64,000 nucleotides of DNA from Dehalococcoidia bacterium (GCA_965249275.1 CBDFLQ010000007.1:128001-192000), one strand, 5' to 3'; shown: positions 22,260 to 62,475, counted from the stretch's first letter. Numbers and translations are program-made. Notes: a model not told the origin generated them from the sequence alone.

Positions 22260-22430
22260 AAGACTTTGCATAACCGTCATTCTCTCAGTGTCTGGCACCC
22301 CATCCGCAGGAGTGGGGCATTCCGCTCGCCCTGTCGCAGATGCGCCGTGGCGTAAGCTGAGTCGAAGGGTCTCAAGAGCAGAATGGGCGGGGCGTACCGC
22401 GCCCACACCCGGAGTCATGCAAAGACCTCT
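22260..22430. mobile_element. MITE-like element (CTTTGCATAAC ends) containing a REP with a 21-bp insertion
   Basis: GAAGACTTTGCATAAC ... GTCATGCAAAGACCTC; insertion at 22333-22353. Confidence 0.55.
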
Positions 22431-42704: not shown

Positions 42705-43025
42705 GCCCCCCCACAAGGAATCCGGGGCAGGGCATTCCACTCGCCCTGAGGCTCTCGAAGGGTCTCAATGACGGAATGGTGGGTGGCCCTTCCTACCCCA
42801 CCCACCCACACCCTTGTCGTGTCATCCCGAGGCTCCGCGAGGGATCTAAGGCGTAGGCCCACCTTTTCAGCGATTACTTGAATGCTCCCGGTGGCCGAGA
42901 CGCACCGCCCTCTCCCGTCATCCCACCCTCCCGAGCCGGTCGAAGATGCTGCAAGTGCTCATTTGGCGTGCGCCGAGGCGTGAATCCATCCCACCCCCAT
43001 CCTCTTCCCCGTAGGGGCAGGTCTC
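42705..43025. repeat. REP mosaic with a nested 43-bp insertion
   Basis: Several REP types; doubly nested insertion at 42939-42981. Confidence 0.7.
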
Positions 43026-44703
43026 GGAGTCTGTTTCATAAGTTATAGGCATATGGAGTAGGCTATGGTGGACAAGGTAGACAGCGTCATAAGGAGGTGA
43101 CTGGGGATGCCACATCGACCGATGAACCGGGAACAGGTATGGATGTTGCCGCCGAGTCTCGACGAGATGCTGGGGGCCGGTCATTCTGCTCGATTTGTTG
43201 CTGAGTTCGTCGATGCCTTGGATGGAGAGGGCTGGGCAGGGATTGGGATTGATAGAGACGGGGAGGCGATGGGAGCGCCGGCCTACCATCCCCGTGCGCT
43301 GTTGGGTGTGTGGCTGTACGGCTTCATGACCGGTGTGCGATCGAGCCGCAAGCTGGAGGCGGCCTGCTGCGACCAGATACCGTACCTTTGGCTGACGGGC
43401 TGCCAGCGCCCGGACCACGTGACGTTGTGGCGGTTTTACAGCTCGCATCGGGATGGTATGAGGAAGCTGCTCAAGCGGACGGTGCAGACGGCGGTTAATA
43501 TGGACCTGGTGGAGATGGCGGTGCAGGCGGTGGACGGGACGAAGATTAGAGCGAATGCGGCAAAGGACCGGACCTACGACGCCGCTGGGTTGCGCCGTCT
43601 GTTGGGCCGTTTGGAAGGTGCGATAGACGAGTTGGAAGCGCAGAACGAGGCTGGGGAGGAGTCGGCTATCGGCCATCTGCCGGAGAGGTTGCAAGACCGC
43701 AAGGCATTGCGTGAGCGGGTGCGTGAGACGGTGCACAGACTTGCCGATCGGGATGGGCAAAAGCAGATCAACCTGACCGATCAGGACGCCCGGATGATGA
43801 AGACGCGACAGGGTTATGCGGTGGCCTACAACGCCCAGGCGATGGTCTCTACGGTAGCAGCGGCTGAGGGTAAAGCGCCCGGCATGCTGATCACGGCAGT
43901 TGATGTGGTGAACGACATATCCGACAGACGGCAACTGGGTGCGATGATGGAGAAGGCTGAGGAGACGTTGGGACAAAGGACGGAGATGACGTTGGCGGAT
44001 GCGGGCTATCACTCCGGGAACAATCTACAGGAGTGCGCCCTAAGAGGCCAACGGGTGGTGATGCCTGAGTCGCAGGACCGGGCGCTGCAGAGCCCGTATC
44101 ACAAAGACCGTTTCACCTACGACGAGGCGAGCGACAGCTACCGTTGCCCCGAGGGCCGGTTGCTGCGCTTCACTCGCACCAAGCGCACTCGCAACACAGC
44201 AATGCGGCTCTACCGGGCATCAGGGGCCGTGTGCCGGGCCTGCCCGGCCTTCGGGGTCTGTACGAAAGACAAGCGTCATGGGCGTGCCCTGGAGATCGGT
44301 TCCCACGACGCTGCGTTGCGTCGACACCGGGCCTGGATGTCCACCGAAGAAGCCAAGGGTGCGTATAAACAGAGAATGCAACTGGTAGAACCGGTCTTCG
44401 GTATCATCAAGGAGCAACAGCAAGCCCACAGGTTCCTGTTGCGTGGCTTAACCAACGTCTCGGCTGAATGGAGCCTGCTCGCCACAGCCTTCAACTTGCG
44501 CACCCTGTGGAGGATACGGCGAGCCGCAGCTACCTGGACAAAGCATTGGGTAGCCGAGGGCGCATACTCGGCCTATCGGGCGCTTCGGACGGCAATCGTG
44601 GGCACACTCAGCCCCCTGCTTCGATTAATGCGGCTCCGCCATCAGCCAGCCCGACCAAGCCAACTCCCCACGTCAAGCACAACCTACATCTGAAACAGAC
44701 TCC
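43026..44703 (+). mobile_element. IS1182 family element
   Basis: 13-bp TIR GGAGTCTGTTTCA / TGAAACAGACTCC; no clear target duplication. Confidence 0.85.
43107..44693 (+). CDS. IS1182 family transposase
   Basis: YHPRALL, SSRKLE, PDHVT, VDGTKIRANA, TDQDAR, YNAQ, ADAGY, VEPVFG; stop codon lies inside the TIR. Confidence 0.92.
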   Translation: MPHRPMNREQVWMLPPSLDEMLGAGHSARFVAEFVDALDGEGWAGIGIDRDGEAMGAPAYHPRALLGVWLYGFMTGVRSSRKLEAACCDQIPYLWLTGCQRPDHVTLWRFYSSHRDGMRKLLKRTVQTAVNMDLVEMAVQAVDGTKIRANAAKDRTYDAAGLRRLLGRLEGAIDELEAQNEAGEESAIGHLPERLQDRKALRERVRETVHRLADRDGQKQINLTDQDARMMKTRQGYAVAYNAQAMVSTVAAAEGKAPGMLITAVDVVNDISDRRQLGAMMEKAEETLGQRTEMTLADAGYHSGNNLQECALRGQRVVMPESQDRALQSPYHKDRFTYDEASDSYRCPEGRLLRFTRTKRTRNTAMRLYRASGAVCRACPAFGVCTKDKRHGRALEIGSHDAALRRHRAWMSTEEAKGAYKQRMQLVEPVFGIIKEQQQAHRFLLRGLTNVSAEWSLLATAFNLRTLWRIRRAAATWTKHWVAEGAYSAYRALRTAIVGTLSPLLRLMRLRHQPARPSQLPTSSTTYI

Positions 44704-45844: not shown

Positions 45845-46035
45845 GGGCCGGGGCCGCTCGTGCTGAGCCCGTCGAAGTATGAGCGGGGCGGGGGCCAATC
45901 CCCTCTCCCTCGGCGGAAACTTTGTACAACTGTCATTCCGAGGCCCCGCGAGGAATCTGGGGCTGGGTCCCATCCCCTCTCCCTTGACGGGAGTCGTAGA
46001 TGCGCCGAGGCGTGAGGGCTAGGGCTAGGGTGAAC
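45845..46035. repeat. REP mosaic with a 21-bp insertion
   Basis: Three REP types; insertion at 45993-46013. Confidence 0.7.
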
Positions 46036-47300: not shown

Positions 47301-48498
47301 GGGAAGCTCTGAACAACTCACTGTAAACCAGCTTAGGTTGTCTTGCATGGAGTTTTGGGGAGAGGTTGGGTCGTAATGTTGCGTCTCGGTGGCTTATTTG
47401 CATCCTATGTTCTGGCCTGTCAGGGCATCCAGTCACCATCGACCCGGATTTGACCACACTGCTCCTCCGTCACACCGCTAAGTGGCGCTCGGCCCTTACC
47501 AAGTTGGCCAGCCCCAGCAGCATCGCCACCCGTTGCGTGTTCTTGTACAAGCCCCTGTAGCGGACCTTGGCGTAGCCGAAGTGCCGTTTCACGTACAGGA
47601 ACGGATGCTCCACCTTAGCCCTGATGGATGATTTGCTCTTCTCCGCTAAGGCCTCGCAGCTCCCCGCCCTCAGTTTCCGACGCCGTCCAGGTCTCATCGC
47701 CACCCGCCACTCCACATCCATATCCCGATTCTCCGCCCGCTTCTCCACTCCCTGATATCCCGCATCTCCCCACACTCGCCTCTCCCCTCCATGCAGCAGC
47801 CGGTGCGCCTCCGTCACGTCATGCACGTTCGCAGCTGTCGTACTCATACTGTGCACCACCCCCGTGTCAGCGTCTGCACCAATGTGCACTTTCATACCGA
47901 AGTGCCACTCCTTCCCCTTCTTCACTTGGTGCATATCGGGGTCTCGCTCTCCAGCACGGTTCTTCGTAGACGCCGGCGCCTCGATGATGCTCGCATCCAC
48001 AATCGTACCCTCCCTGAGCCTCAGTCCCCGAGACTCCAGATGACGGTTGATCTCCTCGAACAGCCCCCGACCCAACTCCTGCTCTTCCAGCAGATGGCGG
48101 AAGTTCAGTATCGTAGTCTCGTCAGGCAAGGGGCCGGACAGCCTCAGACCTGCGAACCGCCTCACCGACTCCACCTCGTAGAGCATGTCCTCCATGCCCG
48201 GATCGCTCAGGTTGTAGAACAGCTGCACGCAGTGTATCCGCAGCATCACCGACAACTCGTAGGGCCTCCGTCCACGGCCCGCCCTGGAATAGTAGGGCCG
48301 GATTCGCTCCTCTAACTTTCCCCATGGAACCAGGTCCTCCATCCGCTCCAGAAATATCTCCCGGCGGGTCTTTCGCTTCTTGCCCTCGTATTCCAAGTCT
48401 GCAAATGTCGGCTGCTCCATCAAATCTCACCTCAGCTTTGGCCTTACTCTCCCTATCTTACCTATTACCTATGCCCTTAGACTTGTTCAGAGGTTTCC
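47301..48498 (-). mobile_element. IS5 family element
   Basis: 16-bp TIR GGGAAGCTCTGAACAA / GGAAACCTCTGAACAA; flanks TTAG and CTAG. Confidence 0.88.
47470..48420 (-). CDS. IS5 family transposase
   Basis: LSDPGMED, PDETTILNFR, VDASII, FGMKVHIG, GDAGY, RAKVEHPF. Confidence 0.93.
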   Translation of the reverse strand: MEQPTFADLEYEGKKRKTRREIFLERMEDLVPWGKLEERIRPYYSRAGRGRRPYELSVMLRIHCVQLFYNLSDPGMEDMLYEVESVRRFAGLRLSGPLPDETTILNFRHLLEEQELGRGLFEEINRHLESRGLRLREGTIVDASIIEAPASTKNRAGERDPDMHQVKKGKEWHFGMKVHIGADADTGVVHSMSTTAANVHDVTEAHRLLHGGERRVWGDAGYQGVEKRAENRDMDVEWRVAMRPGRRRKLRAGSCEALAEKSKSSIRAKVEHPFLYVKRHFGYAKVRYRGLYKNTQRVAMLLGLANLVRAERHLAV

Positions 48499-48915
48499 TA
48501 GATTCCTCGCGGGGCATCGGAATGACAGGGTTAAGGGGGTTGGAGTGGGGGAGGGGCGGACGCGACGGATCGGCAATGCGTGGACTGCCCCCGCTCGACC
48601 CTTCGACGGAGCTCAGGGTGAGCGGCCCTTCCCCAAGGATGGATTCACGCCTCGGCGCATCTTTGACCGGCTCTCTCGGCAGTCGGAATGGCGGAGGGGG
48701 AGGGAGTCCCGGCTCGGCGGGGGGGTGCGCCTTCAGGAGGGATGGATTCACGCCTTGGCGCATCTGCGACCTGCCTCCGCAGGAAAGACGGATGAGGGGT
48801 GGCAGTGTGGGGCGGTCCCCGCTCGCCCTTCGACCCGCCTCAGCGGACTTACAGCAAGCTCAGGGTGAGCGGCCCCTCACAGGGATGGATTCCGTCTCGG
48901 GGGCCGGAATGACGA
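48499..48915. repeat. REP mosaic with three 21-bp insertions
   Basis: Insertions at 48647-48667, 48750-48770 and 48835-48855; an uninserted unit at about 48887-48914. Confidence 0.75.
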
Positions 48916-54106: not shown

Positions 54107-54421
54107 GAGAGCTTTGCACAACTACAGGTTGCCTCTGCTGTACTGTCCGGATCACGTAACCTCCACCCCCCGCTCATACTTCGAGAGCCTCAGCACGAGC
54201 GGCCCCGGCCCCACCGCGGGAGGTTAGGCAAAAATCTCATCAAGGGAGAGGGGATGGAACGCTCGCACATCATTCAGTTCTTGGGATCCCCTTCGAGAGC
54301 CTCAGGACAGGCTTCGACTTCGCTAACGCCACGGCGCATCTTCGACAGGGCGAGCGGAATACCCCGCCCCTGGGGATGGAGCCCGACTCGGGAGCAGAAA
54401 TGTCGGTTATGCAAGGGTCTC
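54107..54421. mobile_element. MITE-like element (GAGA[G/C]CTTTGCA ends) filled with REP units
   Basis: GAGAGCTTTGCACAAC ... GTTATGCAAGGGTCTC; insertion at 54326-54346. Confidence 0.6.
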
Positions 54422-54464: not shown

Positions 54465-55385
54465 ATGCCAAAGATTGGACTGGTAGGGCTGGGAGTTATC
54501 GGGCGGATATACGCTGCCAACCTGACAAGGACTTTCGGGCCGATATATGTCTATGACAGCGTTCGGGAGCGGATGGCGGCAGTAGAGAAGCTGGGGGCTC
54601 TGGCGTCGGAGAGTGGGGCGGACTTGGCGAGGTTGTCGGAGGTGGTGTTGCTGGCGCTGCCAAACCCCGAAGCGGTGAGGGCGGCGGTAGATGGGAAGGA
54701 TGGCGTGTTAGAGGGGGCTCGGCCAGGGACAGTCATTGTGGACCTGAGCACCATTGACCCGAAGACTGCCATTGAGATGTATGCTTGGGCGAAGGAGCGG
54801 GGTGTTGACTACCTGGACTCTCCGATAAGCGGGGGGCAGCCAGGTGGGGCGGGCACCGACGGGGCGAAGGCGGCCAACGTAACCTTCATGGTGAGCGGGG
54901 ACCGAGGCGCATTCGAGAAGGCAAAGCCTGTGATGGAAGCGCTCGGCGAGAAGTTCTTCTTTCTGGGGGAGGCAGGGACGGGGACGAAGGTAAAGCTGCT
55001 GAGCAACTTCGTTAGTGGGATGGTCAACTTGATCTCGGCGGAAGCGTTTGCTCTCGGGGCGGCGGCGGGCATCGATGCGAAGACCCTGATGGACGTGTTT
55101 GACGAGACGGACGCCGACTGCTACTTCATGCAGAACTATGTCCGGCCGAGAATCGAGCGGGGTGATTTCGAGCCGGGCTTCTCGGTTGACCTGCAGTACA
55201 AGGACTTGAAGCTGACCAGCGAATGGAGCAGGGAGGAGGGGGTTCCCACCCCCATCAATGACCTGGGCGTGCAGCTATACCAGATGGCTCGGGCGGCGGG
55301 GCTGGGGCATAAGGACCTGGTGGAGTCGGTGAATTATTGGGCGCGGGTGTCGGGGGTGGAGTTGGTAACGGGTGACAGGGCTTGA
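54465..55385 (+). CDS. 3-hydroxyisobutyrate/beta-hydroxyacid dehydrogenase family protein
   Basis: GLVGLGVIG, DLSTIDP, DSPISGG, KLLSN, KDL. Confidence 0.88.
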   Translation: MPKIGLVGLGVIGRIYAANLTRTFGPIYVYDSVRERMAAVEKLGALASESGADLARLSEVVLLALPNPEAVRAAVDGKDGVLEGARPGTVIVDLSTIDPKTAIEMYAWAKERGVDYLDSPISGGQPGGAGTDGAKAANVTFMVSGDRGAFEKAKPVMEALGEKFFFLGEAGTGTKVKLLSNFVSGMVNLISAEAFALGAAAGIDAKTLMDVFDETDADCYFMQNYVRPRIERGDFEPGFSVDLQYKDLKLTSEWSREEGVPTPINDLGVQLYQMARAAGLGHKDLVESVNYWARVSGVELVTGDRA

Positions 55386-55399
55386 GCGCAGGCTCTAGC

Positions 55400-56110
55400 A
55401 CGCCGCTCATACTTCGATGCTTCATAGGCGGACTTGCAGCGGGCTAAGTATGAGCGGCCCCGCCTCCGGAGACTGGATTCACGCCATGGCGCACGCCAAA
55501 GGCGCATCCTCCCGAGGCGGACGTTCCGCTTGCAGCATCTTCGACCGGCTCGGAGGCCGAAATGACGGAGAGGGAGGGGCAGGATGAGGGTGTTTTAGGG
55601 GTGGGAGTCGTAGGGATGTACGTCCGGTAGGGATATATGCCTTAGGTTCCTCGCGGGGCATCGGAATGGCATGGTTGGGGTGGTGGGTTGGCGAAGAAGT
55701 TTCGCGGTGGACGCTTGTGCAACTCCGGGTTGGGGCGGAAACGCCCTGCCCATTCCGCTCTTGAGACCCTTCGACTCGGCTTACGCTATGGCGCATCTTC
55801 GACAGGGCGAGCGGAATGCCCCGCCTTTGGGGAGGTATTCACGCCTCGGCGCACGCCAAAGGCGCACTTTCAGCATCTTCGACCGGCTCGGAGGCCGGAA
55901 TGACGGAGAGGTAGGGGCAGGATGAAAAGGTTTTAGTGGTGGAGAGCGATATGGGTACGACTACTAGGGACATGCGCCTTAGATTCCTCGCGGAGCCTCG
56001 GAATGACAATGATTAGGGTGGTGGGTTGGGGGCGGAGGGACGTGACAGATTGGCAGTGCGTGGACTCCCCCCGCTCATACTTCGACGGGCTCAGCACGAG
56101 CGGCCCCGCC
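55400..56110. repeat. Large REP mosaic with an internal ~200-bp duplication and nested insertions
   Basis: About 55476-55690 resembles about 55836-56030; insertions at 55418, 55481-55545, 55783 and 55841-55883. Confidence 0.78.
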
Positions 56111-62414: not shown

Positions 62415-62475
62415 TCACCCTCACCCTAACCCTCTCACGCCTCGGCGCATCTACGACCCGTCAAGGGAGAGGGGA
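62415..62475. repeat. TCACCCTCACCCT..CCCTCTCCC..AAGGGAGAGGG REP with a 21-bp insertion
   Basis: Insertion at 62437-62457; an uninserted sister unit at about 61164-61202. Confidence 0.75.

Follow-up and report, generated by a model that had tools for sequence, protein, structure and literature searches.

A 65-nt nest of three stem-loop modules and its genus-specific family in Dehalococcoidia: candidate non-autonomous mobile DNA

The 64,000-nt stretch of DNA analysed here (hereafter the window) covers positions 128001-192000 of contig C7 (GCA_965249275.1, CBDFLQ010000007.1) of an uncultured, sponge-associated Dehalococcoidia bacterium, and sponge metagenomes are among the public runs that contain its sequence. 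At positions 55481-55545, it holds a 65-nt nest of three short stem-loop modules, one inside the other, within a hairpin repeat resembling repetitive extragenic palindromes (REPs). These modules belong to a genus-specific family of non-coding units of 21-22 nt, and the triple is one copy of an old composite. Judging from the anatomy of the units, the precision of their presence or absence and their strand polarity, we tentatively read them, with slightly more doubt than belief, as non-autonomous mobile DNA that a trans-acting factor would insert, and probably excise, in a strand-specific and replication-coupled manner. The comparison set consisted of the source genome (labelled G000; 2.9 Mb, 59% GC, 7 contigs, 87% complete) and eight congeners, which are metagenome-assembled genomes (MAGs) of Dehalococcoidia, i.e., nine genomes, six of them single-contig.

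Each unit is made of a stem-loop (H), with a GC stem of 4-5 bp, followed by a 9-nt tail (T) of the form A-Y-S-T-N-C-N-R-C. The stem-loop reads x-CGCC or x-C(G/T)CC, a loop of 2-5 nt and GGCG-x, and comes as A-type (ACGCC...GGCGC) or C-type (CCGCC or CCTCC...GGCGG), while the tails fall into class I (ATCT-N-CGAC), class II (ACTT-N-CAGC) and class III (A(C/T)GTTCC(G/A)(C/T)). Stem and tail positions are conserved, and it is the loop and the fifth tail position that vary. With this grammar, the stretch 55481-55545 parses exactly as units of 21, 22 and 22 nt in the order H1 H2 (inner unit) T2 T1, just as the original prediction had bracketed it, and it sits within a REP-like host hairpin, GGATTC^CGGCTC...GGAATGAC (here and below, ^ marks the insertion point). 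The outer, middle and inner units are of classes I, II and III, respectively, and each class is also found alone in other hosts, so that the nest reflects insertion and not a local duplication that diverged later. Its parts are as follows:

55475-55480, + strand: left arm of the host hairpin (family R5), GGATTC, with the insertion point directly after it; the empty form, GGATTC^CGTCTCGGGGGCCGGAATGACG, is at 48885-48912
55481-55492, + strand: H1, stem-loop of the outer unit, ACGCCATGGCGC, class I, making 21 nt with T1
55493-55506, + strand: H2, ACGCCAAAGGCGC (55493-55505), and the first tail base, A (55506), of the middle unit, class II
55507-55528, + strand: inner unit, TCCTCCCGAGGCGGACGTTCCG, class III, 22 nt, composed of T, CCTCC-CGA-GGCGG and ACGTTCCG
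55529-55536, + strand: remainder of the tail of the middle unit, CTTGCAGC
55537-55545, + strand: T1, tail of the outer unit, ATCTTCGAC
55546-55572, + strand: right part of the R5 host hairpin, CGGCTCGGAGGCCGAAATGACGG...

The middle unit is present in uninterrupted form (ACGCCAAAGGCGC ACTTTCAGC) at 55853-55874. The boundaries of the inner unit are unambiguous in this copy (GGCGCA^T...G^CTTGCAGC), and the same unit recurs at the equivalent place in 9 further nests (G000, G002, G003 and G005). That inner 22-mers also occur outside the composite, as had been suspected, is borne out by 29 core matches of their class, most of them in other hosts. The core ACGCCNNGGCGCA has 9 copies in the window for 0.07 expected, and none of 100 shuffles reached 9.

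One might suspect an artefact of assembly or polishing in a repeat-rich intergenic region, as the nest is embedded in 675 bp of stacked repeats and no public contig connects the unique sequences on its two sides; among Logan contigs, which break up at repeats and in which rare alleles or starts are not visible, no single record does so. Yet one of them (X8 record 20) matches 55336-55505 with 0 differences, while two others (X10 records 13 and 14) cross 55474-55566 and 55488-55580 ungapped, with 11 and 7 differences, and may come from paralogous or related copies. Moreover, the three-level form is found at three canonical and two variant or degenerate loci of G000 and at two loci in each of the separate assemblies G005, G002 and G003 (six loci), and a four-unit nest is common to G000 and G005 at orthologous positions. 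An assembly artefact, a concern attached to the original prediction, is therefore very unlikely, and we give it almost no credence.

The nest of class I, class II and class III units in R5 is canonical at C7 183481 (the nest under study), C5 666286 and C5 339894, whereas C7 313956 is a variant and C6 215317 degenerate. Copies of the triple differ chiefly in their loops, and among the 9 canonical triples hosted by R5, all inner units but one, which has C, start with T. Recurrence at three loci of G000 and at two in each of three congeners indicates that the composite spreads with its host repeat: the triple at 55481 was inherited and copied with that repeat, and does not represent three events at this place. 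In the four-unit nest at C7 313956 (C7 313850-314100, - strand), one unit occupies the loop of the outermost stem-loop, and the junction between its H and T holds a nest of two levels; the arrangement is conserved at the G005 orthologue with ~89% identity. As for the stack that holds the nest under study, its flanks are a 3-hydroxyisobutyrate-dehydrogenase-like gene and an amidohydrolase gene, which are only 28-37 bp apart in G002, G005, G004, G006 and G008. The whole stack (55418-56091) is thus absent from five congeners, and the locus of the nest is young as a whole.

Our unit counts are based on a genome-wide tokeniser that parses H and T tokens. This enumeration of nested forms, which the original prediction had proposed, returned for G000 113 simple H-T units (many of them directly behind GGATTC), five H-H-T-T forms, two H-T-T forms and two cases of H-H leading into an inner unit, the last two being the nest under study and the second triple at C5 666286. 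Not a single H-T-H-T arrangement appeared in this whole-genome run, and adjacent units are co-oriented in 7 of 7 pairs lying at most 60 nt apart and in 14 of 14 pairs lying at most 500 nt apart. Class III units do form short tandem arrays (H-T H-T H-T) at C5 477306-477350 and C7 805089-805111 of G000, unlike classes I and II of this genome. Another Dehalococcoidia MAG (L120, 4.5 Mb) carries, on the - strand (1-250 and 1380-1440), four identical 22-nt class I units in tandem and two elsewhere, within R5-like hairpins, which indicates that tandem growth also occurs.

Regarding taxonomic distribution, the class I pattern is present in all 8 congeners (2-98 copies, with 98 in G004, 64 in G001, 4 in G006 and 2 in G008). 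Of 3 genera sampled elsewhere in the family, none has it, and of 19 more genomes from the class, one does, while the reversed pattern, used as a control, gave 0 matches. The modules are a genus-specific family. A scan of public genome contigs recovered at least 112 stretches and was not used as a distribution.

All the intermediate states that the original prediction had named exist in the window: the empty host (48885-48912), the single unit (48647-48667) and the doubles (55841-55883, + strand, and 42939-42981, - strand). Its caution that the two 43-nt copies may not be independent was well placed, since doubles and triples are subfamilies of host repeats. The other copies and host states of the window, along with the two transposase genes discussed below and their candidate terminal inverted repeats (TIRs), are:

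55841-55883, + strand: two-level nest (class II within class I), 43 nt, in another R5 copy
42939-42981, - strand: two-level nest in R5, 43 nt, with a degenerate inner stem-loop
48647-48667, + strand: single class I unit in R5
48750-48770, + strand: single class I unit in an R5 variant, GGATTC^CTGCCTCCGCAGGAA
48835-48855, + strand: class II unit, CCGCCTCAGCGG ACTTACAGC, at site 1 of host R1
48885-48912, + strand: empty R5 host hairpin, GGATTCCGTCTCGGGGGCCGGAATGACG
54326-54346, + strand: single class I unit at R1 site 2; the G005/G002 orthologue has an extra 22-nt unit between H and T
45993-46013, - strand: single class I unit in host R3, of the type CCCTCTC^CC..GGGAGAGGG
62437-62457, + strand: single class I unit in host R3
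22333-22353, - strand: single class I unit at R1 site 2
55418-56091, + strand: stack of co-oriented repeats holding the nest, 675 bp
43107-44693, + strand: IS5/IS1182-like DDE transposase gene (DUF772 + DDE_Tnp_1), candidate TIRs 43026-43043/44686-44703
47470-48423, - strand: IS5/IS1182-like DDE transposase gene (DUF772 + DDE_Tnp_1), candidate TIRs 47299-47319/48480-48500

Both IS5-like transposase genes adjoin repeat clusters.

The hosts are several families of REP-like hairpin repeats, of ~40-90 copies each, and units occupy fixed points of at least 10 different host repeat contexts. The contexts were read from listings of the units, since automatic classing did not assign 72 of them and overlooked class II tails. 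The insertion points are:

R5: GGATTC^CGGCTCGGGGGCCGGAATGACGG and variants
R3: CACCCTCACCCTAGCCCTCTC^CCATCAAGGGAGAGGGG
R6: CCCCCTCTC^CCTTAGGGCC
R1: site 1 after CCCTTCGA(C/T); site 2 at GCTC^AGGG(C/T)GAGCGG
R2: GAGAGCCTC^AGCACGAGCGG
R4: GATCCCT(C/T)^GCGG(A/G)GCCTCGG in G000; a double behind AGATTC^ in G004
R7: GCAAAGGTC^TCATCGAG
R8: TTCAGT^TGTGGGG

What precedes the unit at these primary sites is a brief motif, in most cases (C/T)TC: of 136 loosely defined class I units, 90 have C at -1 and 82 have T at -2. With a C at the end of the unit as well, the boundary is ambiguous by 1 nt (up to 3 nt in A-type nests). Within a resident unit, insertions of classes I and II are at the junction between H and T, and those of class III one base into the tail (two bases under the other reading of the ambiguous boundary). 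Removal of the inner unit revealed 14 cases, in 12 of which the nested insertion point lies 0 to +3 nt from the end of the resident stem-loop, the other two being tandem neighbours. A control in which the removal was shifted by 3-10 nt also yields units (1-9 per shift under strict settings, up to 16 under loose ones), and no statistic was drawn from it: the stem-loops and tails of different units are alike, which makes such a control uninformative. The original claim that units nest at or near the hairpin of their own kind stands, although it fails if read as three events at 55481, where we see one copy of a composite common to congeners. Its further proposal, that the target is structural (a short GC hairpin in single-stranded DNA), fares less well: a short sequence, and not the base of a GC hairpin, precedes the primary sites, stems are weak, and for a single-stranded substrate the only pointer is strand polarity. 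Among metagenome contigs, the pattern of GGATTC plus unit hit 28 loci, of which three (L226, L240 and L241) are true units in R5-like hosts, the remainder being chance; these three hairpins differ in their inner stems, which points to the 5' sequence, and not to structure, as the target. The triple-junction pattern had 0 matches in the same contigs.

Different units share sites, and identical units turn up in unrelated sites. Site 2 of R1 hosts both A-type and C-type units, the R5 site takes units with tails of classes I, II and III, and two 21-mers are repeated identically in non-homologous hosts, ACGCCTCGGCGCATCTGCGAC with 4 copies in 4 contexts and ACGCCTCGGCGCATCTTCGAC with 10 copies in 4 context types. 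The presence of one family in at least 10 non-homologous contexts, together with its nesting in itself, argues that homology-independent insertion took place repeatedly. As a side observation, half repeats (GGATTC plus stem-loop, or tails plus CGGCTC...) abut ordinary genes at C6 141255 and C7 511156 of G000 (both on the - strand), as if the other half had been lost by rearrangement.

To compare orthologous sites, we took 400 kb each from G005 and G002 and aligned C7 to them, which gave ~0.33-0.36 Mb of alignment per genome; the three genomes are about equidistant, with pairwise identities of 92.5-93.3%. At seven loci, clean indels of 21-22 nt correspond to exactly one unit, the host repeat being otherwise conserved:

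C7 112785: unit in G005 only; G002 not comparable
C7 143590: unit in G005 and G002, absent in G000
C7 145426: unit in G002 only
C7 182336 (window 54326): class I unit, single in G000; in G005 and G002, a class II unit is nested in it
C7 212568: unit in G005; G002 not comparable
C7 251257: unit in G002 only
C7 256494: unit in G000 and G002, absent in G005

In addition, an R4 hairpin of G004 (L250), in the intergenic gap upstream of the dehydrogenase gene, contains an H-H-T-T double of 42 nt after AGATTC; there, G006 (L249) has the empty host with the same flanks and G008 (L251) an empty R4 at the same position. No unit indel shows a target duplication of more than 1 nt (at most 1 nt, and ambiguous). 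The flanks of the indels at C7 145426 and 251257 are devoid of co-converted changes. Moreover, the unit present only in G002, at 251257, carries a TGC loop that none of the 7 other G002 copies within 2 mismatches shares, which leaves it without a visible donor in that genome. Whatever the rooting of a three-taxon tree, and barring recombination, one event or more would have to be a precise loss. Distant congeners were tried as an outgroup for the nested/single locus and discarded, because in them the gap holds non-orthologous repeats. Finally, a clean 21-nt indel outside the unit family (CTGGGTTATCAAATCAGGCCG, C7 100188) is present in G000 only when compared with G005 and G002.

The orientation of the units and of all host families is strongly biased, ~85-95% lying on the G-rich strand irrespective of how the neighbouring genes run. 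Of 120 units, 100 have the locally G-rich strand as their H-to-T strand, and so do 82 of the 93 that lie outside open reading frames (ORFs) at absolute skew values >0.05. Split by the four possible arrangements of the flanking genes, concordance is 25/25, 24/28, 16/17 and 17/23, while genes themselves are co-oriented with the skew in only 913 of the 1676 called (both gene-based counts rest on a calibrated but approximate home-made gene caller). Hosts behave likewise: R2 81/84, R3 59/61, R4 69/75, R1 77/90 and R5 75/93. Over R1-R7, 573 of 633 signature matches are on the G-rich strand (81-100% by family), the exceptions being mostly located where the skew is near zero. Orientation thus follows the asymmetry associated with replication and not transcription. 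The G-rich strand is usually the leading strand, by which rule the H-to-T strand would be the lagging-strand template, and this is the orientation reported for single-strand transposons. Within the window, the sign of the GC skew and the orientation of the repeats flip together between 46.0 and 48.6 kb (units on the - strand up to 46013 and on the + strand from 48647). This flip coincides with a synteny or inversion breakpoint relative to G005, flanked by the two IS5-like transposase genes, and none of the nine ORFs scanned is dnaA; we take the place for a probable rearrangement breakpoint and not for an origin.

Such polarity, very strong in every family and related to replication, could also be expected if the modules were selected functional motifs, e.g., binding sites for a dimeric protein or replication-oriented signals, arranged in mosaics like the bacterial interspersed mosaic elements (BIMEs), with mobility being secondary. 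The conservation of stem and tail positions, as opposed to the variation of the loop and of tail position 5, would agree with such a role, and the central mismatch of CCTCC/GGCGG suits a double-stranded binding site better than a hairpin. On the other hand, congeners differ in copy number between 2 and 98, sister genomes can do without whole stacks, orthologous sites may have or lack a unit, and the units have no fixed position with respect to genes, the four gene arrangements occurring in similar numbers. We thus regard selected function as an improbable primary explanation.

Returning to mobile DNA, the mechanism that we have in mind would involve a trans-acting factor reading both the stem-loop and the tail of the module, cutting after a C, usually in YTC, and inserting modules, probably also excising them, strand-specifically during replication. 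The H-T junction of a resident module would itself be an acceptable target, which would account for nesting. Single-stranded DNA would be the substrate, as suggested by strand polarity.

Several observations weigh against this mechanism. First, the Pfam profile of Y1_Tnp (PF01797), which covers both TnpA of IS200/IS605 and the REP-associated tyrosine transposases (RAYTs), matched 0 of the 9 genomes and 6 of 14 control genomes; TrwC and Rep_trans likewise matched 0 of 9, Relaxase 1 of 9 (a single congener), and there was no match to TnpB (PF07282), IS110 transposase or RVT_1 in the 87% complete G000. Second, the stems are weak and often mismatched, including the common inner-class CCTCC/GGCGG with its central mismatch, and the DNA folds no better than shuffles (z from -2.2 to +1.4), the exception being the top strand of the triple (z -2.2). 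Third, no single-stranded circle or junction read was seen in the Logan contigs. Fourth, no indel is polarised among the three equidistant genomes, and insertion therefore cannot be told from excision. Fifth, unit variants are largely host-specific (R2 has only C-type units, R6 only 3-nt A-N-A loops and R3 mostly ATCTACGAC), and units gained at orthologous sites are of the variant typical of the host, as gene conversion between paralogous hosts would give. Finally, host families equal or exceed the units in polarity, which the units may simply inherit from them.

The IS5-like elements of the window were rejected as movers because neither H nor T is related to their terminal inverted repeats. 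A search for long H...T elements with cargo retrieved only truncated repeat fragments beside ordinary genes. Viral contigs gave 11 single matches, taken as chance, and Rfam 15 had 0 matches at the gathering score over window positions 40000-64000.

The fifth and last of these points recall an explanation that dispenses with any dedicated mobility of the units, which we judge somewhat unlikely. Units would have entered each host family rarely, then spread as passengers, while homology-driven exchange among host copies, by gene conversion, repair of hairpin breaks from a paralogue or template switching, would flip sites between empty, single and nested states. Besides host-specific variants, host-typical gains and a unit polarity equal to that of the host, this is consistent with the recurrence of doubles and triples as whole composites in four genomes, with the differences in whole host-repeat stacks between sister genomes and with the lack of a transposase candidate; the H-T-T and H-H-T forms would fit slippage between similar modules. 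What it explains poorly is the spread of one unit family over at least 10 non-homologous contexts and into itself, the identical 21-mers in unrelated hosts, the TGC-loop unit of G002 at C7 251257, which has no visible donor, and the indels at 145426 and 251257, whose flanks carry no co-converted changes. Our reading is that both processes act: rare homology-independent insertion would create new contexts and nests, while the copying of hosts and exchange among them would account for most copies.

If insertion is retained, the obvious movers would be Y1 (HUH) transposases, acting on REP- or IS200/IS605-type elements from a replicon that is missing from the assemblies, or too divergent for the Pfam model. 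The unit can be likened in geometry to the right end of IS608 or to the nic region of relaxases, in which a stem-loop is followed by 8-9 nt and then by the cut; gain or loss is precise and free of target duplication, and orientation is strand-specific, as reported for transposons using single-stranded DNA. Set against this are the profile searches reported above, run on 9 genomes of which 6 are single-contig, as well as the lack of a GTAG or CGTC tag and of inverted doublets, which make a Y1 mover highly improbable. It is rather unlikely, though conceivable, that the modules, and perhaps the whole replication-polar repeat system of the genus, are moved without any known transposase family, either by an undescribed enzyme or by a housekeeping replication or repair activity on single-stranded DNA at the fork. 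If true, these would be the smallest autonomous-looking mobile units with a defined stem-loop and tail grammar and a self-targeting (nesting) rule.

Among known systems, the closest kind is that of the small dispersed repeats (SDR1-8) of Nostoc punctiforme and other Nostocaceae, as judged by description. These SDRs, reportedly described by Elhai and colleagues in Genome Research in 2008, are said to nest in each other, and we know of no enzyme that mobilises them. Like our units (21-22 nt, 113 simple copies in 2.9 Mb), SDRs are short (~21-27 nt), non-coding and dispersed, and they insert precisely at fixed points of other repeats, to which our 7 orthologous unit-sized indels and 12 nested cases can be compared. 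The differences lie in the phylum, the anatomy of the unit (a stem-loop and a 9-nt tail, with three tail classes), the orientation bound to GC skew and the REP-like hosts. According to a passage in PMC4390886, SDR5 inserts precisely between nt 3 and 4 of HIP1, while a passage in PMC5861425 states that SDRs were not found in other HIP1-enriched cyanobacteria outside Nostocaceae; the SDR work of Elhai is also cited in PMC3116915 and PMC2884548.

Compared with REPs, our units are also short, GC-rich, imperfectly palindromic intergenic repeats of many copies that can sit inside other palindromes. They are, however, shorter, have an asymmetric tail and are not accompanied by a RAYT gene in the nine genomes. 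The GTAG/CGTC tag is absent from the units, which start with A/C-CGCC and end in GAC, AGC or CGC, and REPIN-like inverted doublets are lacking, with 0 opposite-oriented pairs among 7 (60 nt) and 14 (500 nt). REPs and REPINs with RAYTs are treated in Bertels and Rainey 2011 (PMC3116915) and Di Nocera et al. 2013 (PMC3733652), section 7 of the latter placing the GTAG-23 REPs of T. roseum inside the palindrome CCGSSCC(n3,4)GGSSCGG.

With IS200/IS605 elements, the units have in common the lack of target duplication, precise presence/absence and replication-linked orientation, whereas those elements need two different ends and TnpA, when the unit has one stem-loop, 21-22 nt and no TnpA that we found. 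Elements of this family (IS608, ISDra2) insert 3' of a short target without duplication, excise precisely, have their subterminal hairpins recognised and show a fork-linked orientation bias. Miniature inverted-repeat transposable elements (MITEs) of DDE transposons have TIRs and a duplication of at least 2 bp, while our units lack inverted repeats at their ends, and their empty sites are free of any duplication. The GC clusters and double-hairpin elements of fungal mitochondria are very small, GC-rich, mobile hairpin modules with preferred target motifs, for which we know of no enzyme; they belong to AT-rich organellar genomes, are 30-50 nt long or more and do not follow a stem-loop-plus-tail grammar. 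BIMEs, finally, are intergenic mosaics of a few short motif types in fixed relative orientation, with the motifs juxtaposed between palindromic units. Our modules keep a fixed orientation and recur as composites, but they are nested, each within another and within host-hairpin stems or loops. BIMEs of enterobacteria are named in PMC2884548.

Full-text literature searches returned no description of such repeats in Dehalococcoidia. Beyond the known small repeats, the family offers a clear grammar, state changes at orthologous sites, strict polarity and the lack of known transposases, and the modules look like some of the smallest mobile DNA known. The question of how repeats of ~20 nt move dates back to the cyanobacterial SDRs of 2008. 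In practice, the units give rise to intergenic indels of 21-65 nt that aligners and annotators will misread. With nine genomes, most of them single-contig, 2-98 copies, clean states from empty to triple, gains or losses at orthologous sites at ~93% identity, a strict orientation rule and no Y1/RAYT, TnpB, IS110, reverse transcriptase or common relaxases and Reps, the genus offers a tractable comparative system that narrows the search for the mobilising activity, and it shows that tiny nested modules are not a cyanobacterial oddity.

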